A stretch of DNA of 64,000 nucleotides from an uncultured Prolixibacteraceae bacterium (GCA_964642545.1 CAZXQU010000002.1:27321-91320); one strand, 5' to 3'; counted from the first letter of the stretch, positions 36,962 through 57,559 are shown. Notes: generated by a model not told the origin, from the letters alone. Numbers and translations are program-made.

Positions 36962-38488
36962 TTATACTTCCCTCTCCCACTTCGCACCCTCTTTGGTATC
37001 TTTCACTACAATGCCCAGTTTCCCCAGCTCATCCCTGATCCGGTCGGAACCGCTCCAATCCTTTCGTGAACGGGCATCTTGCCGTAGTTGGATGATCAAC
37101 TTCATCAGGCCCTCAACGCTCTCTGATTGATCTTCGGAAGACTCATCCTCAAGAGCCAGAATGTCTGTAACGAAAGTGTTAAAAAGGCCTTGCAATTGGG
37201 TTAACTCTTCGTTTGTCAGGGTCTCTTTACCCTCCTTGACAGCATTGATGATCCTGACCGCTTCAAAGAGATTGGCAATCACCATCGGACTGTTGAAGTC
37301 GTCGTTCATGGCGGCGTAGCAGCTGGCAGTGAGATTCGTGATCCGTGATCCGTGATCCGTGATGTCGGATGCCGGATGCCGGATGCCGGATGCCGGATCC
37401 TGCTGCCGACTGCCAACTGCCGACTGAAGATCTTTTAATGTTCCCCAGGCTGACATCAGTTTTTTCAATCCTTTCTCCGCTGCCTGTAAGGCTTCATTGG
37501 AGAAATCGAGGGTGCTGCGGTAATGAGCCATCAGGATGAAGAATCGAATGGTCATTGGACTATATGCTTGCTCAAGAAGGGGGTTGTTCCCACTGAAAAA
37601 CTCCTCAAGTGTAACGGAGTTACCGAGGGATTTACCCATCTTCTGCCCGTTGATAGTGATCATGTTGTTATGTAACCAATATTTTACTGCATCTTTCCCG
37701 TTTGCGATCCTCGACTGTGCGATTTCGCATTCGTGATGCGGGAAGAGCAGGTCCATGCCGCCTCCGTGGATGTCGAATTGTTCCCCTAAATACCTCGTTC
37801 CCATAGCCGAACACTCCAGGTGCCAACCAGGGAAGCCATCGCTCCAGGGAGAGGGCCAGCGCATGATGTGTTCGGGTTGAGCCTTTTTCCAAAGTGCAAA
37901 ATCGGCCGGATTACGTTTTTCTTCCTGTCCATCAAGTTGTCGGGTGTTAGAGATTAGGTCTTCCAGCTTCCTTCCCGATAATTTTCCGTACTGGTGAGAT
38001 TTGTTGTACTTCTCTATGTCAAAATAGACCGACCCATTGTTGATGTAAGCAAATTCGGCATCCAGAATTTTCTTTATCATTTCAACCTGCTCGATGATAT
38101 GCCCTGATGCCCTGGGTTCGATGCTTGGCTGAAGTACGTTTAGCATGGTCATAAAGCGATGGTACCTGTCTGTGTAATATTGTACCACTTCCATCGGCTC
38201 CACCTGATCCAACTTTGCTTTTTTCGCTATTTTATCTTCCCCTTCATCAAGGTCCTGCTCCAGGTGGCCAACATCTGTAATATTCCTCACATACCTCACC
38301 TTGTACCCAAGGTGTTTCAGGTATCGGAACACCAGGTCGAATGTGATGGCCGGACGAGCATGGCCAAGGTGGGGATCACCATAGACTGTAGGACCGCAAA
38401 CATACATCCCAACAAAGGGTTCCTTCAATGGGATAAAGAGTTCCTTCTCACGGCTCAATGTGTTGTAAACAGAAAGGTTATGCTCCAT
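36962..38488 (-). CDS. cysS: Cysteine--tRNA ligase with a repeat-derived in-frame segment
   Basis: [23 protein letters not shown] and KMGKS. TAACTTTG box on - at 38507-38514. Confidence 0.97.
37333..37423 (-). repeat. Thirteen tandem heptamers inside cysS
   Basis: On +: GATTCGT (GATCCGT)3 GATGTCG (GATGCCG)4 GATCCTG CTGCCGA CTGCCAA CTGCCGA. Confidence 0.92.
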
Positions 38489-38588
38489 GGATCAGCGAAT
38501 TCGCAACAAAGTTAAGAAATTAAAACTTGCTAAAAGATTAACAATAAACTTCCTACTTTTGCAAACGAAACCAACAATTCTTCAACAG

Positions 38589-39536
38589 ATGGAAAAAATT
38601 CTGGTCATTGGATGTTCAGGACAAATTGGTTCTGAACTAACCCTTGAACTACGTAAAATGTATGGCGACAGCAACGTCGTTGCTACGGATATCCGACCTG
38701 CTCCAGCCGATATTCTGGAGAGTGGTCCGTTCGAGATCCTTGATGTACTGGATGCAGGAAAACTTCAGTTGATCTGCGAGCATGAAAAGATCACCCAGGT
38801 ATATCACCTGGCGGCCATCCTCTCAGGCAACGCCGAAAAACGCCCTATGCCCTCCTGGGATATCAACATGCGCAGCCTCTTCAATGTACTGGAGATCGGA
38901 AAAGCACTAAAAATTAAAAAAATATTCTGGCCAAGCTCCATCGCAGTTTTTGGTCCAACGACTCCCCGGATGAATACCCCTCAGTATACCATCATGGAGC
39001 CGAATACAGTTTACGGCATCAGTAAGCTTGCTGGCGAGCGATGGATTGAATATTACTACCAGAAGTATGGTATAGATACACGTAGCTTGCGCTATCCCGG
39101 ACTGATCAGCTACAAGACGGAAGCCGGTGGCGGCACAACTGACTATGCGGTGGAGATCTTCTATGATGCCATCAGGAAAGGAAACTATAAATGCTTCCTG
39201 AGCAGCGAAACGGCTCTTCCGATGATGTTCATGCCCGATGCTATCAAAGCAACCATTGATGTGATGGAAGCTGAGGCATCAAAGCTAAGCCTGCGGTCAA
39301 GCTATAATGTTGCCGGAATCTGCTTTACCCCGCATACCCTGGCCAATGAGATCAAAAATCATATCCCCGGTTTTGAGATCACCTACAAACCCGATTTTCG
39401 CCAGGCGATTGCCGACTCGTGGCCCGATTGTATTGACGACAGTGTAGCACAAAAAGATTGGGGTCTTACCTATGAATACAATCTGCCCCGCATGACGCAG
39501 GTGATGATTGATGAGATCAAGAAGAAATTAGTTTAA
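38589..39536 (+). CDS. tdh: L-threonine 3-dehydrogenase (SDR type)
   Basis: GCSGQIG, HLAAILS, PSSIAVFG, YGISK and GGGTTDY. ATG 38589 follows TACTTTTG at 38554. Confidence 0.85.
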   Translation: MEKILVIGCSGQIGSELTLELRKMYGDSNVVATDIRPAPADILESGPFEILDVLDAGKLQLICEHEKITQVYHLAAILSGNAEKRPMPSWDINMRSLFNVLEIGKALKIKKIFWPSSIAVFGPTTPRMNTPQYTIMEPNTVYGISKLAGERWIEYYYQKYGIDTRSLRYPGLISYKTEAGGGTTDYAVEIFYDAIRKGNYKCFLSSETALPMMFMPDAIKATIDVMEAEASKLSLRSSYNVAGICFTPHTLANEIKNHIPGFEITYKPDFRQAIADSWPDCIDDSVAQKDWGLTYEYNLPRMTQVMIDEIKKKLV

Positions 39537-41478: not shown

Positions 41479-41496
41479 AATTCCATGTTTTAAGGG

Positions 41497-44400
41497 TTAC
41501 ATACTTCTTCTGTACTGTCCGCCCACATCAAATAATGCGTGTGTGATCTGACCGATGGAGCAGATTTTAGAGGCTTCCATCAAACTCTCAAAGATATTTA
41601 AATTCTGAGTGGTTCTGTGTTGCAAATCCTGCAATGCAACTGCCGATTCCTTTTCCCATGTCTTATGAAGTTGCTTCAGCATATCGATCTGATACTGCTT
41701 CTCCTCTTCTGTTGACCGGATAACCTCTCCAGGTAATACAGTCGGAGACCCTTTGCTGGAAAGAAAGGTGTTTACACCCATGATCGGCAGCTTTCCCGAA
41801 TTTTTCATCATCTCGTAATAGAGAGACTCTTCCTGGATCTTACTGCGCTGGTACATGGTCTCCATGGCACCCAGCACACCGCCTCTTTCCGATATCCTTT
41901 CAAATTCAAGCATCACTGCCTCTTCAACCAGCTCTGTCAGCTCTTCAATAATAAATGATCCCTGAAGAGTGTTCTGGTTTTTTGCCAGGCCAAGTTCGTG
42001 GTTGATAATCATCTGGATAGCCATTGCCCGGCGTACCGATTCTTCGGTAGGTGTGGTGATAGCCTCATCATACGCATTGGTATGCAACGAGTTGCAATTG
42101 TCATAAATAGCATACAATGCTTGCAGAGTTGTCCGGATGTCGTTGAAGTCGATCTCCTGGGCATGCAGTGATCTCCCGGATGTCTGAATATGATATTTCA
42201 GCATCTGTGAACGAGCGTTTGCTTTGTAGCGGTATTTCATCGCCTTGGCCCAGATAAGTCGGGCCACTCTTCCGATCACTGAATATTCGGGATCAAGCCC
42301 GTTAGAGAAGAAGAAAGAGAGGTTTGGGGCAAACTTATTTACATCCATCCCCCGCGAAGCGTAATATTCCACATAGGTAAACCCATTGGAGAGGGTGAGC
42401 GCCAACTGCGTGATCGGGTTCGCTCCCGCCTCGGCAATGTGGTATCCGGAAATGGAGACAGAATAGAAATTCCTGACGTTTGTATAAATGAAGTAATCCT
42501 GAATATCCCCCATCATCTTCAGGGCAAAATCGGTGGAGAAGATGCAGGTGTTTTGTGCCTGATCCTCTTTCAGGATATCAGCCTGTATGGTTCCCCGTAC
42601 CTGCGACAAAGTCTCCTGCTTAATTTTCGCATACACCTCCTGTGGCAACACCATGTCGCCCGTCACGCCCAGTAGCAACAAACCAAGTCCGTTATTCCCC
42701 TTTGGCAATTTTCCCTGGTAGGAAGGACGTTTTGTTCCTTTCTTCCGGTAGATTGCCTGGATCTTTTTCGCGACCTCCTCTTCCAGGCCATGTTCGAGGA
42801 TATATTTCTCACATTGCTGATCGATGGCGGTATTCATGAAATATCCAACCATCGTGGGTGCCGGCCCATTGATCGTCATGGAAACCGAAGTGTTTGGATC
42901 AAGCAGATCGAGCCCGGAATAAAGTTTTTTAGAGTCGTCTAAACAGGCAATAGAGACGCCTGAGTTGCCGATTTTCCCATAAATATCAGGCCGCATGCCA
43001 GGGTCAAATCCATAGAGTGTGACAGAGTCGTAAGCTGTAGAGAGGCGAATAAAAGGCATCCCGTGTGAGACGTAATGGAACCGTTTGTTGGTCCGCTCAG
43101 GCCCACCTTCTCCGGCAAACATCCGGGTGGGGTCTTCGCTGGTCCGTTTAAAGGGAAAGACACCTGCAGCATACGGAAATTCGCCTGGCACATTCTCGCG
43201 AAGATTCCAATTCAGAATATCTCCCCATCCTTTGTATTTTGGAAGGGAGATCTTGGGAATCCGGAGGTGGGAGAGCGACTCGGTATGGGTCTCCACTTTG
43301 ATCTCCTTGTCGCGTACTTTGTATACAAATGTCTCTTCCTGTAAACTCCGGATTTTCCCGGGCCAGTTCTTTAGAATTTGCTGGTTGGCAGGATCAAGGT
43401 CTTTCTTTGTTTGCTCGTAAATTTTCTCAAGTTCAGTGATAGCTGCCTGTTGCCTTACTGAATTTTCCGGAGACGGCAGGGTCTCAGGATTTCGGAATGT
43501 CTCCAGTGTTTCGTGGATAGCATAGAGCCGCTGAGCAACCTTGGCCTGTTCCTGCGACCATTGGTTATATCCCCTGACTGCCTCAGCGATTTCTGCCATG
43601 TAGCGGGTTCGGGAGGGAGGAATAATAAATATTTTCTCCTCCATCTCATCTTTCCCGATAAAATGGCTTGGGAATGATACGCCTGTCTTCTCTTTGATCG
43701 CTGAGATGATTGCCTGGTATAGTTTGTTTACTCCGGGGTCGTTGAACTGGGAGGCAACGGTTCCGTATACCGGCATCAAGTCAAGGTCGTCGTGGAAACG
43801 GTTGTGGTTCCTTTGGTATTGTTTTTTCACATCCCGTAAGGCATCCAGCGCTCCCCGCTTGTCAAATTTGTTGATGGCGATCAGGTCGGCAAAGTCAAGC
43901 ATGTCGATCTTTTCGAGCTGACTGGCAGCCCCGAATTCGGGGGTCATCACATAGAGTGTCAGGTCGCTGTGGTCGACGATCTCGGTGTCGGACTGACCGA
44001 TCCCTGAAGTCTCCACGATGATCAGGTCAAAGCCGGCTGCTTTGGTGATCGTAATGGCATCCTTCACATATTTTGAGAGAGCCAGGTTGGACTGCCGGGT
44101 GGCAAGAGAACGCATATAAACCCGTGGGTCGCTGATAGCATTCATCCGGATCCGGTCGCCCAGCAATGCTCCTCCGGTCTTTCTCTTGGTAGGATCAACC
44201 GAAATAATCGCGATATTTTTATCGGGAAGGTCATTTATATAGCGCCTAACAATTTCATCTACCAGGCTCGATTTCCCTGAACCTCCGGTTCCTGTAATTC
44301 CTAGGATAGGAACCTTATTCTTTTTTGCTTTGGCTTCCAGCTTTTGCAAAAATGGACGAGCCCCTTCCGGATCATTTTCGGCCAGCGTAATCAGTCGCGA

Positions 44401-44898
44401 TATCAGGGACTGACCACTGGCCTGTATATCATCGAAATCAATTTTCTCCAGGTTGTTCAGTGGAAAATCACATCGTTCCAGCACATCGTTGATCATACCC
44501 TGCAGGCTCAACTCCCTGCCGTCATCCGGTGAGTAGATTCTGGTGATTCCGTATTCCTGAAGCTCTCTGATCTCTTCCGGAAGAATGACGCCACCTCCAC
44601 CTCCGAAGATCTTGATATGTCCGCATCCCGCTTCGTGCAGGAGATCGTACATGTACTTGAAAAACTCCATATGGCCTCCCTGGTAGGAGGTAATCGCCAC
44701 CGCATGTGCATCTTCCTGGATGGCACAATCGACGATCTCCTGCACGGAGCGGTTGTGTCCGAGATGAATCACCTCCGCCCCGCTTGCCTGCAAGATCCTG
44801 CGCATGATATTAATCGCTGCATCGTGGCCATCAAACAAGGATGCTGCCGTAACAATGCGAACGTGGTTGTTCGGTTTATACGGTTTGGGTATTTTCAT
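41497..44898 (-). CDS. icmF: Fused isobutyryl-CoA mutase / MeaI GTPase (B12-dependent)
   Basis: N-terminal FDGHD cobalamin-binding motif, GTGGSGKSS GTPase, mutase RMFAGEG...[11 protein letters not shown]; 1133 aa. Confidence 0.93.
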
Positions 44899-44912
44899 TG
44901 AATCAGCGAAAC

Positions 44913-46055
44913 TTAATCGTTCATGATAGCCCGTGAGATGATAATCTGCTGTATCTCACTGGTTCCTTCGTAGATCTGTGTCAGTTTGGCTTCACGCATG
45001 AGGCGTTCAACGTGATATTCCTTTACATAACCGTATCCTCCAAGAATCTGAACTGCTTCAGTGGTAACATACATGGCGGTTTCGGCTGCCCAGTATTTTG
45101 CCATGGCACTTGCAGTTCCATAAGGCTGTTTCTGGTCTTTTAACCAGGCCGCTTTCAACGTAAAATATCGAGCAGCTTCAATCCGGGTATGCATCTCCGC
45201 CAATTTAAACCCAATAGCCTGGTGATTGATGATTTCCGTGCCAAAAGCTTTCCGCTCCTTCGCATATTGAAGGGCACGTTCATAGGCTCCCTGAGCTATT
45301 CCCAACGCCTGAGAAGCAATTCCGATTCTACCTCCTTCAAGAGTTTTCATGGCCGCTTTGAAGCCAAAGCCATCCTCGCCAATCCGGTTCTCCTTCGGAA
45401 CTTTCACATCATTAAACATGACTGAATGGGTATCAGAACTTCTCATGCCCATCTTATCTTCATGCGGACCAAGTGTGATGCCTGGAGTATCCTTCTCAAC
45501 AATCAGCGCATTGATGCCTTTATGCTTTTTCTCGGGATGTGTTTGTGCTATCAAAATATAGGTCGAAGCGCAATTTGCATTGGTGATCCAATTTTTTGTT
45601 CCGTTCACCAAATAGTGATCTCCCATATCAATGGCCGTAGTACGCTGGGAAGTTGCATCAGACCCTGCATCCGGCTCAGATAGTAAAAATGCACCCAACT
45701 TTTCACCCCGGGCAAGTGGTTTGAGGTACTTCTCCTTTTGTGCTTCATTTCCAAACTCTTCAAGTTCATAGCAAACCAGCGAGTTATTCACGGAAACGAT
45801 GACAGATGTTGAGGAGTCGACTTTCGATAACTCCTCCATGGCGAGGACGTAGGAGATGGTGTCCATCCCTCCTCCGTCGTACTTGGGATCTACGGTCATG
45901 CCCATGAAGCCAAGTTCGGTTAGTGCTTTAACGTGCTGGGTAGGGAATTCGCAAGTTGCATCGCGTTCCAAAACGTCTTTGATCAGCTCCCGCTGGGCAT
46001 AGTCCCTGGCAGCCTGCTGGATCATCTTTTGCTCTTCAGTAAATTCAAAATTCAT
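44913..46055 (-). CDS. Short/branched-chain acyl-CoA dehydrogenase
   Basis: [25 protein letters not shown] and [10 protein letters not shown]. Confidence 0.93.
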
Positions 46056-46189: not shown

Positions 46190-48886
46190 TCATGAAAGAA
46201 ATTTCTCGACTTCTACAAGATCGTCATTCTCCCCCTTTTTTATCTTGAATTGGCGACTTCTGAAAACAGAGATCATTCGGGTATTATCAGCCGTGGTTTG
46301 TGCATATATTCGGGTTAGATTCCACTTGCCTGCTATATCCAAACAATAATCTGTGATAATGTTTCCCAAATCCCTGTTCTGCCATGCATCAATGATGAGA
46401 ATGGCATATTCGACAGCTTCATGGTCCGGATCTGCAATCAATCGGCCAACACCAACGAGTTTCCTTTCCTCACCTTCCCGAGTTTCTGCAACAATCGCCA
46501 ATTCCCGATCGTAATCAATATAACAATATCGTGTAGCTACATCGTGTGTTTCCCAATGAAAAAAATATCTGAATCTGGAGTAAAGGGCCTCTTTAGAACA
46601 ATTTCCAAGCATCTCAAGCCATAGCGGTTCATCCTCTGGTTTAATCGGTCGTAAGAGAAGATCGGTTCCGTCCTGCAATTTTACATGTTTCACATATTTC
46701 TCAGGGTAGGGATGAAGTGCCAGATGATGATATTCAGGTAACGAAAGTGAAAGTATCGGTTCATCAATAACAATCCGCGCATCCACCGCTATCGCGCTTG
46801 TTTCTGTGATAATAAGCGGATTGATGTCAAGTTCTTTAATCTCCGGATAATCCGCAGCAAAATATGATAACCTAATCATCACATCTATCAGTTTATCAAT
46901 GTTCTTTGGTTTTGAACCTCTATATCCTTCCAGGAGGGGAAATATTTTCAACGACTCTAGCATATGCCTTGTAAGAGCCTCATTTAGTGGAGGGAGCCCA
47001 AGAACTTTATCCCCGAAAAGTTCTGCATATATGCCCCCCATCCCAACCATAATGATTGTTCCGAAAACCTTGTCTTTTTTGATTCCCAAAATCAATTCAA
47101 CCGCCCCTTTCTGATCAATCATCGGTTGTATCGTGACTCCATCAACAATGGCATCAGGTAATTTTTCCTTCGCCGATGATATGATTTGCAGAAATCCTTC
47201 TCTGACCATCTGTTCATTCTGTACATTGAGCAAAACTCCTCCAACGTCAGATTTATGCGTAATTTGTTCAGAAATAATCTTTAACACAACAGGAAAGCCA
47301 ATTTGTCTGGCAATACTAGCAGCTTCGTCGGGATTTAAAGCAACGATAGGTTCTGTTGTACTAATCCCGTATGTTCCAATAATTTGTTTGCTTAATCTCT
47401 CTGAAAGAACAGGCCCTTGGTCTTTGATTGTCTCTAAAAACCTGCTATGCAACTCTTCTCTGTTGATAGAAAATTCTACAGGGACATCCCTGGGTGTTTC
47501 ATAAAGTGTTTTAAGGTTTCTTGAATAGGCAACCAGGATCATGAAAGCACGAATGGCCTCTTCGGGTGTGGAAAAGGAAGGGATTCCCAGCTCTGTAAGA
47601 ATTTCAACTCCCTGGCGCATGATCTGTCCTCCAATCCATGCAGCCAAAATTGGTTTCTTTGAATAAGCAGTCAGGGAACCTATTTCCTTTGCGATAGCAA
47701 TAGGGTTAGTCATTGCCTGAGGTGTCATGATAACCAGGACAGCATCTACGTTAGGATCTTCGAGTACACATTTTGTTGCTTTGGAGACCCGTTTTGACCT
47801 GGCATCCCCAAGTACATCCACAGGGTTAGCATGCGACCAGAATGCGGGTAGACATTCATTCAACTTTGCAATGGTTTCTGCTGATAATACAGCCAACTCT
47901 CCATTTAGCGAGATCAGGGCATCTGTAGCCATCACTCCAGGACCTCCTGCATTGGTAACGATTCCCAATCGCGATCCATGAGGGAATTTACTTCTTCCAA
48001 GCAACTCGGCTACATTGAAAATATCTCCGATCTCATATACACGTGCCAATCCTGCTCGTTGAAATGCGGCATCATACACTGCATCTTCCGAAGCCATGGC
48101 CCCAGTATGGGAAGCGGCAACCTGGGCCGACTCGGGATAACGGCCTGCCTTAAAAACAATGATTGGTTTTGTTCTTGCAAAAGCCCGTGCAGCTGTCATG
48201 AATTTGCGGGACTCAACAATCGATTCTATATAAAGAATGATGCAATGAGTATTTTCATCTTCCCCGAAATAATCTATTAAATCTGCAAACTCAATATCAA
48301 GGGCATTCCCAATAGAGACAAAATAAGAAAAGCCGATTCTCCCCTCCAGCGCCCAGTCCAATACCGAGCTACACAGAGCGCCGGATTGGGAAATAAACGC
48401 AATGTTCCCGGATTTAGGTAAGGAGTGGGCAAAACTTGCATTCATTCTATGCTCGGGGACGATCACCCCCAGGCAATTCGGACCAAGTAGGCGCATTCCA
48501 TGATGCTTAGCGATTTCCTTACGGATCTCTTCTTCCAGCCTGCTACCCTCCGTCCCCGTCTCCTTAAAACCGGCCGACATGATGATCACTCCGTGGATCC
48601 CAGCTTCGCCGCATCGTTTAACATGTTGCGGGACATCCTCTGCAGCAGAGCATATAATAGCAAGATCGGGAACCCTTGGCAAACTCAAAACATCAGGGTA
48701 GCAGGCAATCCCCATAATGGCTTCAAAATCCGGATTCACCGGATAGACAACTCCCCGATATCCTCCCCCTACCAGGTTGATTAAAACTTTCCCGCTTACA
48801 CTGTTTGGATTTGAACTAATCCCGATCAGTGCAATCCGTTCAGGATGAAATATGGAATCTAACCTGTGAACATCCATCATTGACAA
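46190..48886 (-). CDS. NDP-forming acyl-CoA synthetase-like / GNAT fusion (Pat/Pka-type protein lysine acetyltransferase)
   Basis: GPNCLG, SQSGA, SHTGA, NAGGPGV, ATP-grasp HKSDVGGV and ELDINPL; C-terminal GNAT RPIKPED...IDYDRE. Confidence 0.88.
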   Translation of the reverse strand: MSMMDVHRLDSIFHPERIALIGISSNPNSVSGKVLINLVGGGYRGVVYPVNPDFEAIMGIACYPDVLSLPRVPDLAIICSAAEDVPQHVKRCGEAGIHGVIIMSAGFKETGTEGSRLEEEIRKEIAKHHGMRLLGPNCLGVIVPEHRMNASFAHSLPKSGNIAFISQSGALCSSVLDWALEGRIGFSYFVSIGNALDIEFADLIDYFGEDENTHCIILYIESIVESRKFMTAARAFARTKPIIVFKAGRYPESAQVAASHTGAMASEDAVYDAAFQRAGLARVYEIGDIFNVAELLGRSKFPHGSRLGIVTNAGGPGVMATDALISLNGELAVLSAETIAKLNECLPAFWSHANPVDVLGDARSKRVSKATKCVLEDPNVDAVLVIMTPQAMTNPIAIAKEIGSLTAYSKKPILAAWIGGQIMRQGVEILTELGIPSFSTPEEAIRAFMILVAYSRNLKTLYETPRDVPVEFSINREELHSRFLETIKDQGPVLSERLSKQIIGTYGISTTEPIVALNPDEAASIARQIGFPVVLKIISEQITHKSDVGGVLLNVQNEQMVREGFLQIISSAKEKLPDAIVDGVTIQPMIDQKGAVELILGIKKDKVFGTIIMVGMGGIYAELFGDKVLGLPPLNEALTRHMLESLKIFPLLEGYRGSKPKNIDKLIDVMIRLSYFAADYPEIKELDINPLIITETSAIAVDARIVIDEPILSLSLPEYHHLALHPYPEKYVKHVKLQDGTDLLLRPIKPEDEPLWLEMLGNCSKEALYSRFRYFFHWETHDVATRYCYIDYDRELAIVAETREGEERKLVGVGRLIADPDHEAVEYAILIIDAWQNRDLGNIITDYCLDIAGKWNLTRIYAQTTADNTRMISVFRSRQFKIKKGENDDLVEVEKFLS

Positions 48887-48966: not shown

Positions 48967-50292
48967 ATGGCTATGAAAAAACTTCTACTGACACTATTTG
49001 TCGCCTCATCAATGATTCCATCACTGTTTGCACAAACAGACGGCGAAAAAAAACCTGCATTTGGAATCAACTTTTCGGGATTTGTTAAAACAGATATATT
49101 TTTTGACTCCCGCCAGGTTGTTACAGCCCGTGAGGGTCATTTCCTGCTTTACCCCGAAAATGAAAAGCTGGATGCCGACGGGAATGATATCAATGCCAAG
49201 TGGAATTCCAACATCCTCGCAATTCAGACCCGGCTGGCAGGTTCAATCTGGGGGCCTGATGTACTCGGTGCCAAAACCTCTGCCTATATTGAAGGTGAAT
49301 TTTTTGGAAATATCAACCCGAATATCAACACCTTCCGACTCCGACATGCTTTCATTAAATTAAATTGGAAATCAACAGAACTTCTGACCGGACAAACGTG
49401 GCATCCGATGTTTTCTACTGACTGCTTCCCCGGTACTGTTTCATTCAACACGGGGGCGCCATTCGTCGTCTTCTCACGAAACCCGCAAATCAGGGTTACT
49501 CAGAAAGTCTGGAAGCTTCAATTCCAACTAGCAGCTCTCTCTCAGGTCGATTTTACCAGTACTGGTCCGGACGGTCCAAGCCCGAAATATTTGAGAAATT
49601 CTGTATTACCTGAACTTGATTTCCAAATCCAATACAAGACAGCCAATAAAGAAACCGGAACAGAATTTGTTGTTGGCGCCGGAATCGATTTCCTGATGCT
49701 GACACCAAGATTATCTACTTCGGTTACACTATCACTTGCTTATGACACCGTGATAAATGGGATCGTTAATCATGTGAATGCGGTTACCAAGGAGTATAAA
49801 ACCACTACGAAAAAAACCAGCTTCGCTTACAATTTCTACACAAAATTAAAACTGCGTCCTGTTACAATAAAACTGGCAGCTCAATATGGTGCTGACAATT
49901 ACTCATTTACAATGTTAGGGGGCTATGTTGTCAGAAGCATTACCGATATTTCCAAAGGATATGTTGATTACGCAAACGTCCGTTCATGCGCAGTTTGGGG
50001 TGAGGTGCACACAAACGGAAAACACTGGCAAACAGGTGTGTTTGGGGCTTATGCAAAAAACCTCGGTGTGGGTGAAAAAGTACTTCCGATTTACTATTCG
50101 AGAGGATCGAACATCGATTACATCTGGCGTATTTCACCCAGGTTGGTTTACAGTATTCAAAAATTCAGGGTAGCACTGGAACTGGAATATACTGTAGCAG
50201 GATATGGAACAACAACTCTACAAGGTTATGTCTCCGATCCTAAAGCAGTTGGAAATCTGAGGACGCTGCTGGCGTTCTTTTACTTCTTTTAA
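48967..50292 (+). CDS. Outer membrane beta-barrel protein (DcaP-like porin)
   Basis: Signal peptide; SGFVKTD, YIEGEF, RLRHAF, GQTW and RNPQIR; C-terminal Phe. Confidence 0.75.
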   Translation: MAMKKLLLTLFVASSMIPSLFAQTDGEKKPAFGINFSGFVKTDIFFDSRQVVTAREGHFLLYPENEKLDADGNDINAKWNSNILAIQTRLAGSIWGPDVLGAKTSAYIEGEFFGNINPNINTFRLRHAFIKLNWKSTELLTGQTWHPMFSTDCFPGTVSFNTGAPFVVFSRNPQIRVTQKVWKLQFQLAALSQVDFTSTGPDGPSPKYLRNSVLPELDFQIQYKTANKETGTEFVVGAGIDFLMLTPRLSTSVTLSLAYDTVINGIVNHVNAVTKEYKTTTKKTSFAYNFYTKLKLRPVTIKLAAQYGADNYSFTMLGGYVVRSITDISKGYVDYANVRSCAVWGEVHTNGKHWQTGVFGAYAKNLGVGEKVLPIYYSRGSNIDYIWRISPRLVYSIQKFRVALELEYTVAGYGTTTLQGYVSDPKAVGNLRTLLAFFYFF

Positions 50293-50373
50293 CGATAGGG
50301 GATACGGGATATGCGACAAGATCAAAGGATCCCAGATTCCCTATCGCGGATCTCGTATCCCGGATCTCGTATC
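50293..50373. repeat. Imperfect inverted repeat of heptamer-like units between convergent genes
   Basis: GATAGGG GATACGG GATATGC on the left; TCGCGGA TCTCGTA TCCCGGA TCTCGTA TC on the right. Confidence 0.6.
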
Positions 50374-50873
50374 TATTTAGTATACTTTTTTGGATCTGTT
50401 GCTTTAACATTCCACATCCTCAGGAACGTCACTACTTTCGTCGTGTCATATCCCTTTTCCGTACAATGCTCCAGGATGCCCGAGTCCTGGATATGAATCT
50501 GCTTCCCGGTTCCGTCAAGAATTACAAATACTGGGAACCCAAACCGGTTGGGAAAACCATATTCCTCCAACAAAGCATAATCCCGTTCATCCTTTTTGCC
50601 GGGTACATTTGCCAATACATAGATGTAATCGGCTGTCACCAATGAATCGACCTGAGGAGATCCCTCCACCAACTTATGGAACCGGATGCACCAGGGGCAC
50701 CAGTTACCCCCGAACTGCACCAGTACATGCTTGTTCTCGGCTTGTGCAAGCATGACAGCGGCTTTCAGGTCAGCACGAACATTGGCATCCGGATTATACG
50801 GACCAGTCCGCTCCTGGGAAAAGGCATGAATCGTCATCCATGCCAAAACAACAACACCCATTAAACTTTTCAT
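50373..50873 (-). CDS. Exported thioredoxin-fold protein
   Basis: Signal peptide; GGNWCPWC; FGFPVFVILD. Confidence 0.85.
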   Translation of the reverse strand: MKSLMGVVVLAWMTIHAFSQERTGPYNPDANVRADLKAAVMLAQAENKHVLVQFGGNWCPWCIRFHKLVEGSPQVDSLVTADYIYVLANVPGKKDERDYALLEEYGFPNRFGFPVFVILDGTGKQIHIQDSGILEHCTEKGYDTTKVVTFLRMWNVKATDPKKYTK

Positions 50874-50879
50874 TTGTAA

Positions 50880-52127
50880 CTACATCCCGTACATATCAAT
50901 GATCTCCTGCTTGCTCTTGCCAAGGATGTCGTATTTTTTCCCAACCTTGGTAAAGGCATCCAGCGCCTTCTCGAGATGATGGATCTCATGTCCTGCCGAA
51001 ATTTGCGTACGAATTCGTGCCTGACCCTGTGGAACAACCGGGAAGAAGAAACCGATCGCATAGACACCCTCTTCGTAAAGTCCGCGTGATACATCCTGCG
51101 ACAATTTCGCATTGAACAGCATCACTGGTACAATTGGCGTATCACCATCCTTGAGAACGAAACCGGCTTCGGTTAATCCTTTTCTCCAGAATTCCGTGTT
51201 TTTCTCAAGTTTGTCACGACGTTCCGTATTGGCAGTAAGAATCTCCAAAACCTTAATTACTCCAGCAACTACCGGGGGAGCAATGGTGTTGGAAAAGAGG
51301 TAAGGACGGGCTTTCTGACGACACATCTCTACCAGCTCTTTGCGGCCTGAGACACATCCGCCAGAGGCTCCGCCAAGTCCTTTGCCAAAGGTAGTAGTGA
51401 TGATATCAACCTTGTCCATCACACCATATTTTTCATGCGTTCCCCGGCCAGTCTTTCCAATGAAACCACTCGCATGTGATTCATCAACAAATAGCAGCGC
51501 ATCATACTTTTCGCACAAGGCCGCCATCTCATCCAGCTTTGCCGTGTCACCATCCATGGAGAAAACCCCATCGGTGATGACCATCTTCAGCCTGCGATCG
51601 TGATGCAACTGAAGCTTGCTCTCGAGATGCGCCATATCGGAGTGCTTGAAGGTATCATGCATGGCGCTGCATAGCCTGATACCGTCGATGATGGAAGCAT
51701 GTACAAGCCTGTCGGAGATCATGACATCATCCTTGGTGAGTACTGCCTCAAATACACCCGCGTTGGCATCCATGCAAGATGGGAACAGGATGGTATCCTC
51801 TGTTCCAAGAAACTCGGAAACCATTTTCTCAAGTTGGCGGTGAATATCCTGTGTCCCACAGATAAACCTTACGGATGACATCCCGTAACCATGGGAATCC
51901 AGCCCTTCGTGGGCAGCTTTCACAACATCGGGGTGGCTGGAAAGGCCAAGGTAATTGTTGGCACAGATGTTAATTACTTTTTTCAAAGAAGCTCCCGAAG
52001 GAAATTCCACTTCGATATCGGCAGCCTGGGGAGAGTGAATATACCTCTCCATCTTGAAAAGACCTGCATCCTGAAGGCCGGTGAGGATGTTACTATACAT
52101 CCCGCGTGTTTTGTCTGAATAAGCCAT
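50880..52127 (-). CDS. PLP-dependent alpha-oxoamine synthase, Kbl-like paralog 2
   Basis: [32 protein letters not shown] (PLP Lys) and RPYLFSN. Confidence 0.88.
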   Translation of the reverse strand: MAYSDKTRGMYSNILTGLQDAGLFKMERYIHSPQAADIEVEFPSGASLKKVINICANNYLGLSSHPDVVKAAHEGLDSHGYGMSSVRFICGTQDIHRQLEKMVSEFLGTEDTILFPSCMDANAGVFEAVLTKDDVMISDRLVHASIIDGIRLCSAMHDTFKHSDMAHLESKLQLHHDRRLKMVITDGVFSMDGDTAKLDEMAALCEKYDALLFVDESHASGFIGKTGRGTHEKYGVMDKVDIITTTFGKGLGGASGGCVSGRKELVEMCRQKARPYLFSNTIAPPVVAGVIKVLEILTANTERRDKLEKNTEFWRKGLTEAGFVLKDGDTPIVPVMLFNAKLSQDVSRGLYEEGVYAIGFFFPVVPQGQARIRTQISAGHEIHHLEKALDAFTKVGKKYDILGKSKQEIIDMYGM

Positions 52128-52145
52128 TGTATTAGTTCTTTATAG

Positions 52146-52388
52146 TTAACCGATATACTCCTTTACCAGGATACAGATTTTATTGACCGAATCAAAGGCT
52201 TCAGGTGTTGCTTTGTCGTCGGGGATGGAGATATTGTATTTGTTCTCCAGAAATCTCTTCAACGAAACCATTGAGAATGAATCAACAATACCACCTGATA
52301 TCAGGGGGGTGTCGTAGGTTACTTCCGAATCGTCTTCAACATACTCTTCGATAATGTATTCTCTTACAACTTCTAACATTTCTTCCAT
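52146..52388 (-). CDS. Stand-alone acyl/peptidyl carrier protein
   Basis: 80 aa, acidic; GIVDS(37)F phosphopantetheine site; FDSVNKI helix. Confidence 0.9.
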   Translation of the reverse strand: MEEMLEVVREYIIEEYVEDDSEVTYDTPLISGGIVDSFSMVSLKRFLENKYNISIPDDKATPEAFDSVNKICILVKEYIG

Positions 52389-52433
52389 GGTGTTTTCTTT
52401 TTTAAGTTCAGTTTATACTATATGTTAATTGTA

Positions 52434-54137
52434 CTAATCATCTTCCAGCGTCGATGTATCCCCGATCTCCTCTCCCCACTCCTTCGCATGTAGTATACGT
52501 CGCATAATCTTGCCACTTCGGGTTTTGGGAAGCGAATCTACAAATTCAATCTCCTGTGGCATCGCCAGGGGAGAGAGTTTTTTTCGGACGAAATTCATGA
52601 TCTGCAGGTCAAGTTCTTTGCTTGCCGTGAAGCCAGGCTTTAGGGTAACAAAAGCTTTCACTACTTCCATATTCACAAAATCGGGTTTGGCCACTACCGC
52701 CGATTCAGCTACCGCTTCATGTTCCAGCAATGCCGATTCCACTTCAAACGGGCTAACCAGGTGGCCTCCGGTGTTGATCACATCGTCGTCGCGACCCACA
52801 AACCAGAAATATCCTTCGCTGTCGATAGAGGAGCGATCACCAGGGATATACCATCCGTTGATAAATTTTTTCTGATAGGTCTCTTCGTTGTTCCAATAAG
52901 TTCGCATCAAGGATGGCCACCCCGGTTTGATGGCGATCAGCCCCATCTTCCCGCTCTCGTTGAACGGTTCATGCGTGTCGGGATCCACCACTGTTGCCAG
53001 GATTCCCGGAAATCCTTTCCCCATTGAGCCAGGTTTGATCTTCATATCAGGAAAGTTGGTGATCACCATACATCCGGTCTCTGTTTGCCAGTATGTATCC
53101 AGGAAGGGTTTCCCAAAGACTTTTTCCGACCAGATGACTGCTTCCGAATTCAACGGTTCCCCTACTGAAGCCAGATGGCGAAGGGAGGAAAGGTCATACT
53201 TCTTCACCACATCGTCCCCGGCCTTCATCAAAGATCGGATTGCGGTTGGCGCCGAATACCACACAGTGATTCTATGCTTTTCAATAAATCGATACCAATT
53301 GTCGGCCGAAAAACCAGCATCAAGCACGCACTGCGTAACGCCATTGCTGAATGCGCCAATAATGCCATAGGAAGTGCCTGTCACCCATCCCGGGTCGGCA
53401 GTACACCAGTAAATGTCGTCGTCATGCAGGTCGAGAACCCACTTGGCAGTTAGGTATTGTGCGATTAGAGAGGCATGAACATGTTTCACACCTTTCGGCT
53501 GACCAGTAGTGCCGGAGGTGTAATGTAAAACAGAAGGTGATTCGGCATAGGTAGGGAAAATCTCAAATTTATCCACTTTCGGAGCCTCCTCCAGATTAAA
53601 AGCAACCTCTTTATCCATTAAAGGCTTTGCCGGATCCTGATCCACAATAATAATATGTTCCAACCATGGCATCTTGTCGAGGATTTTTCGAACCTTCGGA
53701 GCATGTTTTTTCTGTGTGATGATGGCTTTCGTTTGCGCATTTTCCAGCCTGATAAACAACGATTCATCGCCAAAAGCAGAAAAGAGCGGTTGCGCGATGG
53801 CTCCGATCTTTAATACGCCCAGGAAACCGAGATAGAGTTCGGGAATTTTATCCATAAAGAGGCAAACCCGGTCTTCATTTTTTATTCCCAATGATCGGAG
53901 AAAATCCCCGATCGTGTTACTGGCCAGGCGGATATCATTATAAGTATATCGTTTCTCATTACCTGTTGATCCTTCCCAGATCAGTGCGAGTTTATCTGCT
54001 TTCCCCATCTTACAAATCCGGTCAGTACAGTACCAGCCAATGTTGATTGGGTCACCCTTGGTATATCCGAGTTCGTTCTCCGAGATCTTCCAGTCGAAAT
54101 TTTTTACACGTTCATCATATGATCCGATATGCGACAT
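52434..54137 (-). CDS. AMP-forming acetate/short-chain acyl ligase (AcsA-like)
   Basis: YTSGTTGQPKG, ADPGWVTG, SVGEP, YWQTETG and LPKTRSGKIMRR. Confidence 0.9.
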   Translation of the reverse strand: MSHIGSYDERVKNFDWKISENELGYTKGDPINIGWYCTDRICKMGKADKLALIWEGSTGNEKRYTYNDIRLASNTIGDFLRSLGIKNEDRVCLFMDKIPELYLGFLGVLKIGAIAQPLFSAFGDESLFIRLENAQTKAIITQKKHAPKVRKILDKMPWLEHIIIVDQDPAKPLMDKEVAFNLEEAPKVDKFEIFPTYAESPSVLHYTSGTTGQPKGVKHVHASLIAQYLTAKWVLDLHDDDIYWCTADPGWVTGTSYGIIGAFSNGVTQCVLDAGFSADNWYRFIEKHRITVWYSAPTAIRSLMKAGDDVVKKYDLSSLRHLASVGEPLNSEAVIWSEKVFGKPFLDTYWQTETGCMVITNFPDMKIKPGSMGKGFPGILATVVDPDTHEPFNESGKMGLIAIKPGWPSLMRTYWNNEETYQKKFINGWYIPGDRSSIDSEGYFWFVGRDDDVINTGGHLVSPFEVESALLEHEAVAESAVVAKPDFVNMEVVKAFVTLKPGFTASKELDLQIMNFVRKKLSPLAMPQEIEFVDSLPKTRSGKIMRRILHAKEWGEEIGDTSTLEDD

Positions 54138-54187
54138 AATGTTTAAAAGTTAGTTTATCGTTACTGTTTTGAATGTATTTAAATACT

Positions 54188-54268
54188 GCTTGCTTTTCGT
54201 TTCTCGCTATTCGCATTCAAATTTCCTAATTTCCTACTGACTGACTCCCTTCATCACCCCATCACCTC
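54188..54268. repeat. Composite heptamer + octamer repeat overlapping the acpS 3' end
   Basis: GCTTGCT TTTCGTT TCTCGCT ATTCGCA, then (ATTTCCTA)2, then ATCACCCC ATCACCTC. Confidence 0.65.
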
Positions 54269-54638
54269 TTTCCACAACCACCACTGCCGTAGCTATCTCT
54301 TTTAGATGCGATAAAGATACGTGGATTTTCGAAATCGATTCCTGCTCGCACCACTCCTTTGCCTTTCCGTATACATTGATTTCAGGCTTCCCCAGCTCAT
54401 CGTGTGTCACTTCGATGTCGGCAAACCGAATGCCAAAACGCCACCCTGTTCCAATCGCTTTCAGGAACGCCTCTTTCGCCGAAAAACGGGCAGCATAGTG
54501 CTGGTGTTTATGCTTCATCGATTCACAATATTCGATCTCGTGCCCCGTAAATATCTTTTCCCGGAAGCCGATATCCCGCTCCATAACTTTGTGGATCCTT
54601 TCCACCTCAATGATATCTGTTCCTAATCCAAAAATCAA
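54234..54638 (-). CDS. acpS: Holo-ACP synthase (AcpS-type phosphopantetheinyl transferase)
   Basis: [25 protein letters not shown] and VSLSH. TTG start overlaps the kbl stop codon. Confidence 0.93.
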
Positions 54639-55834
54639 ATCGCTCGGAGTTTTTTTCCAACCTTGGTAAATTTTTCAATGGCAAACCGGATCTGTTCCGT
54701 GGAGTGTGCGGCACTGACCTGTACGCGAATCCTCGACTTTCCTTTGGGCACTATGGGATAGTAAAAGCCAATCACATAAATCCCCTCTTCCAGCAGTTCG
54801 TTGGCAAAATCCTGGGAGAGTTGGGCATCGTTTGGCAGGTGTCCGAATAGGATTGGTGTGATAGGATGAATCCCGGGAACAATCCTGAAACCGGCATCTT
54901 CCATGCCCTTCCGAAACATCCTGGTATTCTCAAACAGCTTGTCGCGTAACTCCGTTGTTTCCGACAACATGTTGATCACCTCCAGTGTAGCGCCTGCAAT
55001 GGCAGGTGCCAGGGAATTTGAGAAGAGGTATGGCCGGGAGCGTTGCCTCAGCAGCTCGACGATCTCTTTTTTGCCCGAGATACATCCTCCGGATGCACCT
55101 CCCAATGCTTTTCCGAAAGTGGTCGAAATGATGTCAACACGGTCCATGCAGTTGCAATATTCATGGGTTCCCCGGCCATTGACACCCACGAATCCTGTTG
55201 CATGTGAATCATCAACCATCACAATGGCATCGTACTTCTCGGCCAGGTCACAAATTTTATCCACCTGTGCAATGATCCCATCCATCGAAAAAACTCCGTC
55301 GGTGACAATCAATTTAAACCTGGCAGCCCCGGCCTGCTGGAGAACCTCTTCCAGATCCTCCATGTCGTTATTCTTATACCGGAATCGCTGAGCTTTGCAA
55401 AGCCTCACACCATCGATGATAGAAGCATGGTTCAGCTCGTCAGAGATCAAAGCATCCTGTTCGCTGAGAAGGGGTTCAAAAACCCCGCCATTGGCATCAA
55501 AAGCAGAAGAGTAAAGGATCGTATCTTCCATCCCCAGGAACTCGCTCAACCTTGCTTCAAGGTCTTTGTGAACCTTTTGTGTGCCGCAGATAAACCGGAC
55601 CGACGCCATCCCATAACCATACTTAAAAAAAGTGTAGTTAGCTGCCGCCATCACCCTGGGATCGGAACAGAGCCCGAGGTAATTGTTGGCACAGAAATTC
55701 AGCACATCCAATCCCCTCATCGTCTTGATCTGAACCCCCTGGGGAGTCATCAGAATCCGCTCATTCTTAAAGAGTCCCTCTTCATGGATGGTATCAAGTT
55801 GCTGCTGCAAAAACTCCTTAAAGTTTCCGTACAT
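54635..55834 (-). CDS. kbl: Glycine C-acetyltransferase (2-amino-3-ketobutyrate CoA ligase)
   Basis: [34 protein letters not shown] and [11 protein letters not shown]. Start moved to ATG 55834. Confidence 0.9.
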
Positions 55835-55867
55835 AAATGTTAAAAATTTCACAGGATTTCTGGAAGG

Positions 55868-55875
55868 CAAAGGTA
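55868..55875 (-). promoter_or_regulatory. -7 box heading the kbl-acpS-acs-ACP operon
   Basis: CAAAGGTA on + reads TACCTTTG on -. Confidence 0.55.
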
Positions 55876-55936
55876 GAAAAAATCATCTTACTTCCGTATT
55901 CTCCTTATCTTTATATCCTTCAAAAACCTCACATGT

Positions 55937-56398
55937 ATGAAAAATCTATTTCTTAAATCAATGGCGCTCCTTTTTGGGATTGTCGTAATTGCATCCTGTA
56001 GTAAAAAAGAATCTACCGATCCTCCAAAAGAACCTGATTTCCCTCAACTCATCGGAACCTGGCAGGGAACAACCTGGCAGCAGTATCCCATTGAGATCTC
56101 TGTGATCAACGTAGAAGGTGTGCTATACCTCTCGTCCTATTCCTTTGCGGTCACCAGGCAAGAAGGGGGCAGTTTTGATTCGGCAAATTACCAGATGTCA
56201 ATATCAACAGGTATTGTGCCAGTTCTTAACAAGCAGTTTTCGCTTCAGTTGCTGAGTATGGCCTCTTCCTATACGAACGACTCACTTACAGGCACATTCG
56301 ATACCGGGGAGATGATCCTCACTGGCTCGATCAAGGCTGAGTTCCAGAGTGGAATTGTTGAAGGTAATTATTCCGCTATAAAAAAACCTGCTAACTAA
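55937..56398 (+). CDS. Hypothetical lipoprotein
   Basis: Lipobox IASC followed by SKKES; LIGTWQG suggests a small beta-barrel. Confidence 0.7.
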   Translation: MKNLFLKSMALLFGIVVIASCSKKESTDPPKEPDFPQLIGTWQGTTWQQYPIEISVINVEGVLYLSSYSFAVTRQEGGSFDSANYQMSISTGIVPVLNKQFSLQLLSMASSYTNDSLTGTFDTGEMILTGSIKAEFQSGIVEGNYSAIKKPAN

Positions 56399-56416
56399 TC
56401 TGCCAAAAATTTCTTA

Positions 56417-57559
56417 ATGGAAAACTTCACTTCTTATAACCCAACAACTGTTCACTTTGGGAAGGGTGTTCTTATACATCTCGGCCAAACGCTCTCTCAA
56501 TACGGGACAAGGGTCTTGCTGGTTTACGGGCAGTCTTCAATTAAAAAATCCGGACTGTACGACAGGGTAATGGCCGACCTGAAAAAAGCGGGTCTGACTG
56601 TATTTGAATACGCCGGAATTCGAAGCAACCCGATCATTGAAGATGTGGAAGCCGCAGCTGAAGCAGGGCGTAAAAACAGTGTCGATATGGTTTTAGCTGT
56701 CGGAGGTGGCAGTGTGATTGATTCGGCGAAAGTCATTGCTCTCACAATCCCCGTCAGCCACCCAGCCTGGGATTTCTTTATTGGAAAGGCCACTCCAACG
56801 GCAGCACTTCCGATCATCACGGTATTAACCCTGGCTGCCACTGGTTCAGAGATGAATCCATTTTCTGTAATCTCAAACCAAAAGGCCAAAATGAAAGCAG
56901 CAGTTAGCTCTCCTCTGGCCTTCCCAAAGCACTCTTTTCTTGATCCCGAACTGACGATATCGGTTCCCCGGAATTATACCGCATTTGGAATTGCCGACCT
57001 GATAGCCCATTGCATGGAAGCCTGGTTTGGGGCCGGTGATTGCCCTATGAGCGACAAGCTCGTTCTGAGCATTATCAGAGAAGCGATAGAGGCAGGACCT
57101 CTCTTGCTGAACAACCTTCAAAACTATGATCTCCGAGCCCGCATCATGTATGCAGCCACACTTGCCTTAAACGGAATTACCATGCAGGGAAAAACCTCCG
57201 GCGACTGGGGAGTTCATGCATCAGGTCATATCCTGTCACTCCTTTATGATGTCCCTCATGGTGCATCCCTTACTATCGTTTACCCTGCCTGGATGCGCCT
57301 CTTTAAAGATCAAGTTGGATCGCGGATTGCGGATCTCGGATCAGCCATGTTCAATGAATCTCTCACTGTTGAGCAATCTATTGGTCGGATTGAAGACTTT
57401 TTCCTCTCCCTGGATTGTCCGGTAAAACTCCGTGACTTGAATGTCAAAAATCATTCGGTGAAAGACATTGTTGAGGCAATGGAGATCGGGAAAGTCAATG
57501 GAATGAACATGAAATTTAAGGAAGGCGATTACCTGAGGTTAGTGGAGATGTTCTACTAA
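56417..57559 (+). CDS. Iron-containing alcohol dehydrogenase (BdhA/YqhD-like)
   Basis: NPTTVHFG, GGGSVIDSAK and TGSEMN; metal ligands D..AH, H and PHG. Confidence 0.92.
   Translation: MENFTSYNPTTVHFGKGVLIHLGQTLSQYGTRVLLVYGQSSIKKSGLYDRVMADLKKAGLTVFEYAGIRSNPIIEDVEAAAEAGRKNSVDMVLAVGGGSVIDSAKVIALTIPVSHPAWDFFIGKATPTAALPIITVLTLAATGSEMNPFSVISNQKAKMKAAVSSPLAFPKHSFLDPELTISVPRNYTAFGIADLIAHCMEAWFGAGDCPMSDKLVLSIIREAIEAGPLLLNNLQNYDLRARIMYAATLALNGITMQGKTSGDWGVHASGHILSLLYDVPHGASLTIVYPAWMRLFKDQVGSRIADLGSAMFNESLTVEQSIGRIEDFFLSLDCPVKLRDLNVKNHSVKDIVEAMEIGKVNGMNMKFKEGDYLRLVEMFY

Follow-up and report, generated by a model that had tools for sequence, protein, structure and literature searches.

The question raised by this locus is whether a bacterial Kbl-type enzyme can take its two-carbon unit from a dedicated carrier protein. 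The locus lies in a stretch of 64,000 nt from an uncultured Prolixibacteraceae bacterium (GCA_964642545.1 CAZXQU010000002.1:27321-91320), hereafter called the window, where six genes on the minus strand encode Kbl1, a glycine C-acetyltransferase of the canonical type; an AcpS-type 4'-phosphopantetheinyl transferase (PPTase); an AcsA-type AMP-forming ligase; a small carrier protein; Kbl2, a second Kbl-type enzyme of the alpha-oxoamine synthase (AOS) group; and an exported thioredoxin-like protein. Here we report a comparative analysis of these genes. Kbl1, AcpS, ligase, carrier and Kbl2 are a conserved five-gene module, which is probably a carrier-protein-dependent form of the threonine dehydrogenase/Kbl pathway, a reading built on the identity of the genes, on synteny and conserved residues, and on predicted fusions and a separate clade of ligases.

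If this reading is correct, a private carrier protein holds the two-carbon unit in the role that textbooks assign to coenzyme A (CoA), and carrier-dependent alpha-oxoamine chemistry would have its first example with a Kbl-type enzyme and a two-carbon unit. The labelled host groups dominate anoxic sediments, lakes and digesters, where turnover of acetate and amino acids drives carbon flow, and models of acetate, glycine and threonine flux in these organisms would change. Operating in reverse, the module could give energy-starved anaerobes a new energy-conserving reaction, a substrate-level phosphorylation apart from the acetyl-CoA pool. Automatic annotation labels the genes as acetyl-CoA synthetase, acyl carrier protein (ACP) and Kbl, which leaves the module invisible in metabolic reconstructions. 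A literature search, supplements excluded, returned no description of an acetate-loading ligase combined with a dedicated carrier and a Kbl-type enzyme.

Conservation of the module

The initial annotation of this DNA had proposed that ligase, carrier and Kbl2 form an acyl-carrier route, and that their genes should be sought together elsewhere. The gene order does recur, whether seen from the carrier or from the ligase side. Homologs of the carrier were found in at least 581 confirmed loci of a collection with one genome per species, the best 80 of which formed our species-genome sample; the metagenome sample consisted of 80 loci fetched via the ligase, with the fusion protein P0133 (see below) as query. 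Only loci with enough flank entered the denominators of the synteny counts, and neighbours within 7 kb were counted over 44 loci. In the species loci the ligase lies immediately upstream of the carrier in 65 of 72 cases and a Kbl2-type gene (>70% identical) immediately downstream of it in 71 of 73; AcpS adjoins the ligase in 55/66, and a second AOS gene is found at most 7 kb from the carrier gene in 34/44. From the ligase side, 56 of 61 metagenome loci have the carrier gene next after the ligase, and in 43 of 46 a Kbl2-like gene comes after the carrier. Several of the misses among the species loci are due to a gene that was moved away by an insertion and is not missing. Because it recurs in the 160 fetched loci, the arrangement is far beyond chance.

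By label, the best 80 species loci belong to Bacteroidales/Bacteroidetes, Aminicenantes, Delongbacteria, Zixibacteria, KSB1 and Acidobacteria metagenome-assembled genomes (MAGs), and identities across phyla are 74-93% for the ligase and 76-96% for Kbl2. Metagenome proteins hold at least 8000 candidate members of the carrier family, counted as protein clusters, among them 7998 at E <= 1e-5. Of 401 sampled genomes from the phylum, just two besides the host encode a close carrier homolog, and both possess ligase-carrier-Kbl2 together with a second Kbl. The thioredoxin-like gene, which had been taken as a sixth member of the operon, lies within 7 kb in only 17/44 loci and is not part of the core.

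As in the AasR-AcpR-AOS case, genes for an ANL-family ligase, a dedicated carrier and an AOS lie together here and are co-inherited. Comparative evidence supports the view that ligase, carrier and Kbl2 act together; this part of the proposed route stands, on two-sided synteny, on a separate clade of ligases and on predicted fusions.

Kbl1 and Kbl2

Both AOS paralogs score above the cut-off (493) of the Kbl equivalog model TIGR01822/NF005394, Kbl1 with 627.8 bits and Kbl2 with 567.8 bits, and Kbl2 is closest to a solved Kbl (467 bits to 7bxp). In CnKBL, according to the available text of PMC9814548, the cavity is formed by N52, V81, H138, H215, L274, F275 and R370, with K246 as the Schiff-base lysine and, in addition, S187. 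The equivalents in Kbl2 are all identical (N57, V86, H143, S190, H218, K249, L277, F278 and R373, taken from the alignment after correction of a +4 offset in chain numbering), and the Kbl cavity residues are invariant in 49/49 carrier-adjacent relatives from metagenomes. Because these residues are all kept, the chemistry of Kbl2 would be the interconversion of glycine plus an acetyl-thioester with 2-amino-3-oxobutanoate; of the substrates suggested earlier, glycine or another small amino acid, glycine is favoured.

The surroundings of the cavity are altered. Position 142 of Kbl2, directly before the catalytic His, is Val in all carrier-adjacent sequences (63/63 and 49/49, i.e. 112/112), as against Asn in every one of 29 Kbl1-type sequences, 11 of a third group and 4 further paralogs, as well as in CnKBL. 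Further differences set the carrier-adjacent clade apart from the Kbl1 clade: Cys versus Ala at position 118, Arg or Lys (R140 in Kbl2) versus Glu at position 140, and Asp versus Ile at position 194; at position 119 it has Met or Leu (M119 in Kbl2) versus Phe in the other paralogs. It also bears a conserved C-terminal tail of 14 residues, which is missing from the Kbl1 clade and mostly present in the third group. Kbl1 keeps the Asn before the catalytic His, and F124. The Kbl2 signature is consistent with a different thioester partner and the same amino-acid chemistry, and the exchange of Asn for Val at position 142, together with the obligatory carrier neighbour, would argue for a partner other than free CoA.

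Net charge and pI do not differ between the Kbl2 and Kbl1 clades, with no sign of an electropositive landing pad. A complex prediction for the Kbl2 dimer with the carrier, run without controls, gave scores of 0.02 and 0.14 (mark 0.32) and speaks neither for nor against binding.

A third kind of Kbl paralog directly follows Kbl2 in seven loci, mostly labelled Delongbacteria (L068, L072, L075, L077, L085, L092 and L099). It is about 60% identical to both paralogs of the window, has the C-terminal tail of Kbl2 and keeps Asn142 and Phe119. A 1254-aa protein with a Ser/Thr kinase domain is encoded in L068, where it follows directly, and in six other loci.

The ligase and its acid

The ligase narrowly passes NF003313, the model for acetate--CoA ligase PRK04319 (754.8 bits, cut-off 729), and does not pass TIGR02188 (514 bits, cut-off 725). 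It aligns over its full length with the solved acetyl-CoA synthetase PDB 9g79 (565 bits), which we take to be a Bacillus subtilis-type AcsA. Its pocket motifs WVTG, SVGEP and YWQTE (WWQTE in Acs, the second Trp being kept) align with those of solved Acs chains, and the C-terminal SGKIMRR motif with the catalytic Lys is kept (PKTRSGKIMRR). The acetate pocket is presumably made up of Val, Thr, Val and Trp, if the numbering and roles that we assume from S. enterica Acs hold. An acetate uptake transporter (NF038013, 262 bits, cut-off 50) is encoded near the module in 22/80 species loci, and in an unbiased clustering of all open reading frames (ORFs) from 80 loci the acetate transporter was the commonest extra neighbour after the module itself and a porin-like protein (24 loci). 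The acetate-sized pocket and this neighbour agree with the earlier suggestion that the ligase loads acetate or a short acid; acetate appears to be the best candidate, and propionate is also possible.

Carrier-linked ligases form a group of their own. In a tree of 150 ligases, 128/128 carrier-followed ligases fall into one clade (SH-like support 0.78) and 11/11 ligases of the other groups lie outside it; ligases below about 55% identity (L204, L209 and L212) come without a carrier gene. Cluster ligases score 755-772 bits on NF003313, versus 800-903 for six other PRK04319-type ligases of the phylum sample, and differ consistently at 41 positions. Leu460, the most suggestive of these with regard to CoA versus carrier use, is not exclusive: the site is an Arg in the long Acs, but Met in the six other PRK04319-type ligases.

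Carrier protein and phosphopantetheinyl transferase

The carrier of 80 aa has no Pfam match at E <= 0.001 and reaches no NCBIfam cut-off. Its best NCBIfam match is the ornithine-lipid ACP NF052616 (62.4 bits, cut-off 130), and it stays below the housekeeping AcpP model TIGR00517 (28.6 bits, cut-off 70.45). Residues D36 and S37 are invariant. AcpS scores 107.1 bits on TIGR00516 (cut-off 59.8) and is the sole AcpS-type match above cut-off in the host genome, which elsewhere encodes two ordinary PF00550 carriers and a separate Sfp-type PPTase of 217 aa. Among 7 sampled genomes of the same order, none has AcpS and none a carrier match closer than E = 5e-7. AcpS proteins in general are not confined to the module: they are present in 220/401 genomes of the phylum, and G153, which belongs to a family that usually has AcpS, shows two matches.

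Several relatives are predicted to carry in-frame fusions of ligase and carrier, namely P0129 (664 aa), P0133 (659 aa, 6 members on 5 contigs) and, in part, P0132; AcpS-carrier fusions are predicted in P0135, P0138 and P0139. In 17 of the 80 metagenome loci the stop codon of the ligase and the carrier share a frame, and in L136, L138 and L199 the ATG of the carrier comes directly after that stop in the same frame. Fusions and in-frame abutment are Rosetta-stone-type evidence, which suggests that ligase and PPTase act on the carrier. That the PPTase belongs with the carrier, as first proposed, agrees with the AcpS-carrier fusions and with the place of AcpS beside the ligase.

The predicted fusions come from high-GC relatives. 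Two further candidates were discarded, P0124 as a frameshift artefact and P0134 (carrier-AOS) for its doubtful linker. An AlphaFold2 model of P0133, made from an alignment of 37 rows, had a mean pLDDT of 75 and a pTM of 0.67, with values below 50 for the C-terminal ligase residues 449-570, and the position of the carrier domain in it is unreadable.

Link to threonine

An SDR-type L-threonine 3-dehydrogenase is encoded 11 kb from the module. The protein matches its homolog at L034:9721-10689 with 342 bits and 49% identity, and the latter matches solved L-threonine dehydrogenases with 398 bits. Dehydrogenases of this type adjoin the module in 8/80 species loci and 4/80 metagenome loci. They occur in 37/43 cluster genomes versus 45/121 phylum-sample genomes, a comparison that is an indication only, since related genomes do not count as independent and those with the cluster come from several phyla. 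Of five tested cluster genomes without the SDR type, three have a Zn-type Tdh, and in G153 a Zn-type Tdh-like gene, below its family cut-off, precedes AcpS.

ThrC is found above cut-off in the host genome and in G153, and the idea that the module replaces threonine synthesis in general was rejected on these grounds. The genome G257 (99% complete, locus L020) has the module; neither a ThrC over cut-off (best 67 bits) nor an acetate kinase was found in it, and the module might be relevant to threonine or acetate metabolism in this organism.

Proposed mechanism and direction

Comparative genomics lends good support to the proposal of a private carrier for the two-carbon Kbl reaction; from the same data we infer the loading of the carrier, its use by Kbl2 and the direction of the pathway. 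AcpS would turn the 80-aa protein into its holo form at Ser37. The AcsA-type ligase would then adenylate acetate and thioesterify it onto the phosphopantetheine arm, giving acetyl-S-carrier. Kbl2, with its glycine/2-amino-3-oxobutanoate cavity unchanged and the residues beside its catalytic His altered, would interconvert acetyl-S-carrier plus glycine and 2-amino-3-oxobutanoate plus holo-carrier, and the threonine dehydrogenase would connect this keto acid with threonine. Kbl1 would be the ordinary, CoA-dependent paralog. The module appears to be independent of housekeeping functions: G153 and G257 possess a long canonical Acs alongside the cluster ligase, and the host has its Sfp-type PPTase and PF00550 carriers besides.

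As to direction, we lean slightly towards consumption of acetate (uptake, acetyl-carrier, condensation with glycine) over degradation of threonine. An AMP-forming ligase, an uptake-type transporter, a porin and a Pat-like regulator speak for the former, and so does a principle found in the available text of PMC9386255, namely that a private carrier ties its substrate to a single fate. Breakdown of threonine is favoured by a fermentative neighbourhood (butyrate kinase, a fused IcmF-like mutase, acyl-CoA dehydrogenase and peptidases), by the presence of ThrC and by the classically catabolic role of Tdh and Kbl. Also on this side, an AMP-forming Acs reportedly runs backwards in Syntrophus aciditrophicus. 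A reversible, CoA-independent acetyl shuttle is a tentative and rather doubtful extension of the carrier-dependent pathway; in it, threonine would be converted via 2-amino-3-oxobutanoate to acetyl-carrier by Kbl2, and acetate and ATP would be released by the reversed ligase from AMP and pyrophosphate. More speculatively, acetate might pass from carrier to CoA via a glycine adduct through the joint action of Kbl2 and its co-transcribed paralog Kbl1, which is of the CoA type; such a relay would replace the canonical Acs that most cluster genomes lack.

Comparison with known systems

In its logic the module comes closest to AasR-AcpR-SPT of Rhodobacteria (Caulobacter crescentus CC_1165/CC_1163/CC_1162). 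As described in the available text of PMC9386255, a dedicated small carrier and an AOS are there, too, encoded together with an ANL-family ligase that bears the annotation acyl-CoA synthetase, AasR acylates AcpR only and not CoA, and SPT prefers acyl-AcpR. That system has been proven by experiment according to the same text, whereas the activities of the present module are predicted ones. AasR is a long-chain enzyme, while the ligase of the module is of AcsA type with an acetate-sized pocket; the AOS is of Kbl type (glycine, C2) and not SPT (serine, C16). The carrier of the module also stays below all ACP model cut-offs, AcpS travels along, and the hosts are uncultured anaerobes of other phyla. 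The module appears to work like the AasR-AcpR-SPT family without being a member of it, failing on chain length and AOS type.

By enzyme family, the module would be Tdh-Kbl plus AcsA. It resembles the Tdh-Kbl cleavage of threonine (Kbl structures 1FC4 and 7BXP) in that the Kbl models are passed, the pyridoxal phosphate lysine and the cavity are kept and a Tdh is present in the genome. Classical Kbl, however, takes free CoA and comes without carrier, ligase or PPTase, and it differs from Kbl2 in the residue before the catalytic His, in the further fixed changes and in the 14-residue tail. With AcsA (PRK04319, 9g79) the ligase shares the full-length alignment, the acetate-pocket and adenylation motifs, and PKTRSGKIMRR with its acetylatable lysine; unlike AcsA, the cluster ligases are a separate, carrier-tied clade with lower NF003313 scores and the 41 differing positions.

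Use of an acyl-ACP thioester by an AOS of Bacteroidetes, which we propose for Kbl2, has been shown for SulA, the cysteate acyl-ACP transferase of Alistipes finegoldii, which in the available text of PMC9304779 uses acyl-ACP and accepts acyl-CoA poorly. Unlike Kbl2, SulA is SPT-like and works with a long-chain acyl group, the housekeeping ACP and cysteate.

Alternative explanations

Several observations weigh against a carrier-dependent pathway, and many of them would be expected if the locus served ordinary CoA metabolism, the ligase being the cell's acetyl-CoA synthetase, both Kbl enzymes using acetyl-CoA and the carrier being a bystander with another purpose (regulation or other acyl transfer). 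The ligase passes the curated acetate--CoA ligase model NF003313, and both AOS paralogs pass TIGR01822, by which score alone Kbl2 is an ordinary Kbl. The ligase has an Arg at what we take to be the position of R584 of S. enterica Acs, the contact to the 3'-phosphate of CoA, and use of CoA is possible. No canonical Acs over cut-off was found in the host genome. The canonical long Acs (TIGR02188 over cut-off) is present in 8/43 cluster genomes, with one more split by a stop, versus 110/121 genomes of the phylum sample, a comparison (G401-G443, loci L030-L108) that is confounded by lifestyle, phylum and MAG completeness; given this scarcity, the cluster ligase might itself serve as the acetyl-CoA synthetase of the cell. 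Nearby lie genes for a Pat-like acetyltransferase and acetate transporters, which typically accompany Acs. Two further points weigh on the same side: ligase-carrier fusions are seen as predicted proteins only, with none at the DNA level in the 80 metagenome loci found with P0133, and what the cell would gain physiologically from a carrier in place of CoA is not evident, ThrC being present in the host and in G153. We nevertheless regard the bystander explanation as unlikely. It leaves unexplained why ligase and Kbl2 flank the carrier gene in nearly all loci in both search directions, why ligase-carrier fusions are predicted and carrier-followed ligases are a clade of their own, and why an invariant Kbl2 signature beside the catalytic His is absent from the CoA-type paralogs; G153 and G257, moreover, possess a canonical Acs in addition.

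A pathway to a specialised metabolite or signal is, in our estimate, quite unlikely. It would use another short acid (e.g. propionate) or another small amino acid and release a free aminoketone (of the aminoacetone type, a pyrazine precursor). Pathways to aminoketone natural products usually combine a dedicated carrier with an AOS, and the residues around the Kbl2 active site are changed; decarboxylation of 2-amino-3-oxobutanoate to aminoacetone, and hence to pyrazines, is described in the available text of PMC9814548. The seven glycine/threonine cavity residues of Kbl are, however, invariant, and in the ligase both the Trp that limits the pocket to acetate and the residues Val/Thr/Val are retained. 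The ORFs of 28251-63697 include no tailoring, PKS or NRPS genes, the recurrent neighbours are threonine dehydrogenase and acetate transporters, and high identity across phyla, with at least 581 species-genome loci, looks like core metabolism.

Initiation of a lipid (a sphingoid base, capnine or a similar long-chain base), as by AasR-AcpR-SPT or SulA, shares the three-part logic of ligase, dedicated carrier and AOS (available text of PMC9386255) and would suit Bacteroidetes, which make sphingolipids and sulfonolipids (available text of PMC9304779), but it is very improbable, since the SPT models stay far below their cut-offs (NF047600 318-326 bits versus 640; NF047603 about 236 versus 670), the ligase is of Acs type with a small pocket and not of FadD type, and no reductase, N-acyltransferase or other lipid gene recurs nearby in the 80 clustered loci.

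Organisation of the locus

The features of the window are listed in Table 1. All six co-oriented genes that had been described are present in the ORF listing, and the gaps between them, computed from the ORF coordinates, have the same values as given before (-4, 96, 45, 18 and 6 bp). The quoted motifs were likewise found in the translations: GIVDS in the carrier, PGWVTGT, SVGEPLN and TYWQTETG in the ligase, and NWCPWC in the thioredoxin-like protein, where it comes after a signal-peptide-like N-terminus. The statement that no fatty acid synthesis (fab), PKS or NRPS genes are nearby holds for the ORFs scanned from 28251 to 63697, the first 28 kb being outside the scan.

Table 1. Features of the module and its surroundings, in coordinates of the window
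Feature	Position	Strand	Evidence or remark
Kbl1, canonical-type glycine C-acetyltransferase (2-amino-3-ketobutyrate CoA ligase)	54635..55834	-	ORF as listed to 55870; TIGR01822
AcpS-type 4'-phosphopantetheinyl transferase	54234..54638	-	TIGR00516
AcsA-type AMP-forming ligase, proposed acetate:[carrier protein] ligase	52434..54137	-	NF003313
Carrier protein of 80 aa, Ser37 within GIVDSFSMVSL	52146..52388	-	motif; no family cut-off reached
Kbl2, Kbl-type AOS with putative carrier-linked signature	50880..52127	-	TIGR01822 and signature
Exported thioredoxin-like protein, CPWC	50373..50873	-	Thioredoxin_7; frequent neighbour, not core
Bacteroidetes-type -7 promoter box TACCTTTG	55868..55875	-	upstream of Kbl1
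Porin-like outer-membrane protein	48967..50292	+	without family match; recurrent neighbour
Pat-like protein, ADP-forming acyl-CoA synthetase-like region fused to GNAT	46190..48886	-	Pfam/NCBIfam domains
SDR-type L-threonine 3-dehydrogenase	38487..39536	+	similarity to L034:9721-10689; 11 kb from module

The single -7 box reported ahead of the operon was recovered at the same place, and the sole intergenic minus-strand copy of TANNTTTG in 50373-55936 is part of it. Because the box overlaps the TTG taken as the listed start, Kbl1 most likely starts at the ATG at 55834. A scan for sigma-70 promoters and terminators gave counts at the level of shuffled sequence, the sigma-70 scan being uninformative for the host phylum. 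Over the whole window and both strands, TANNTTTG occurs 59 times versus 40.3 expected (sd 6.2), a count reached in 0/100 shuffles; this excess fits a Bacteroidetes-type promoter vocabulary.

RNA libraries from four lake-water runs yielded short contigs, at least 99% identical, on the genes for the thioredoxin-like protein, Kbl2, the carrier, the ligase and Kbl1, one of which bridges the Kbl2/carrier junction and another the thioredoxin/Kbl2 junction. These contigs are a weak hint at expression of the module, as such libraries may contain DNA, and are no proof of one transcript; stretches that they leave uncovered have no significance.

Neighbouring genes

The porin-like protein (441 aa) has a signal-peptide-like start and no Pfam or NCBIfam match. 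Its homologs lie within 7 kb in 17/44 loci, both in Bacteroidales and in loci labelled Aminicenantes (46-48% identity in the latter), often next to a Pat-like gene. The protein could be a porin, so far uncharacterised, through which small acids pass. The fusion of a Pat-like synthetase with GNAT is found within 7 kb in 8/44 loci, including this window. Pat proteins are known regulators of Acs, and by analogy the Pat-like protein may control the ligase through acetylation of a lysine.

The Pat-like gene is followed immediately downstream by several fermentation genes on the minus strand (40405-46055), which encode a butyrate kinase (TIGR02707, 412 bits), an IcmF-like protein of 1133 aa with fused B12-binding, MeaB and mutase parts, and an acyl-CoA dehydrogenase, the last of which recurs near the module in close relatives. 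Divergent from the module promoter, the plus strand at 55937-57559 encodes a lipoprotein-like ORF of 153 aa without family match and an iron-containing alcohol dehydrogenase, homologs of which occur near the module in 10/80 loci.

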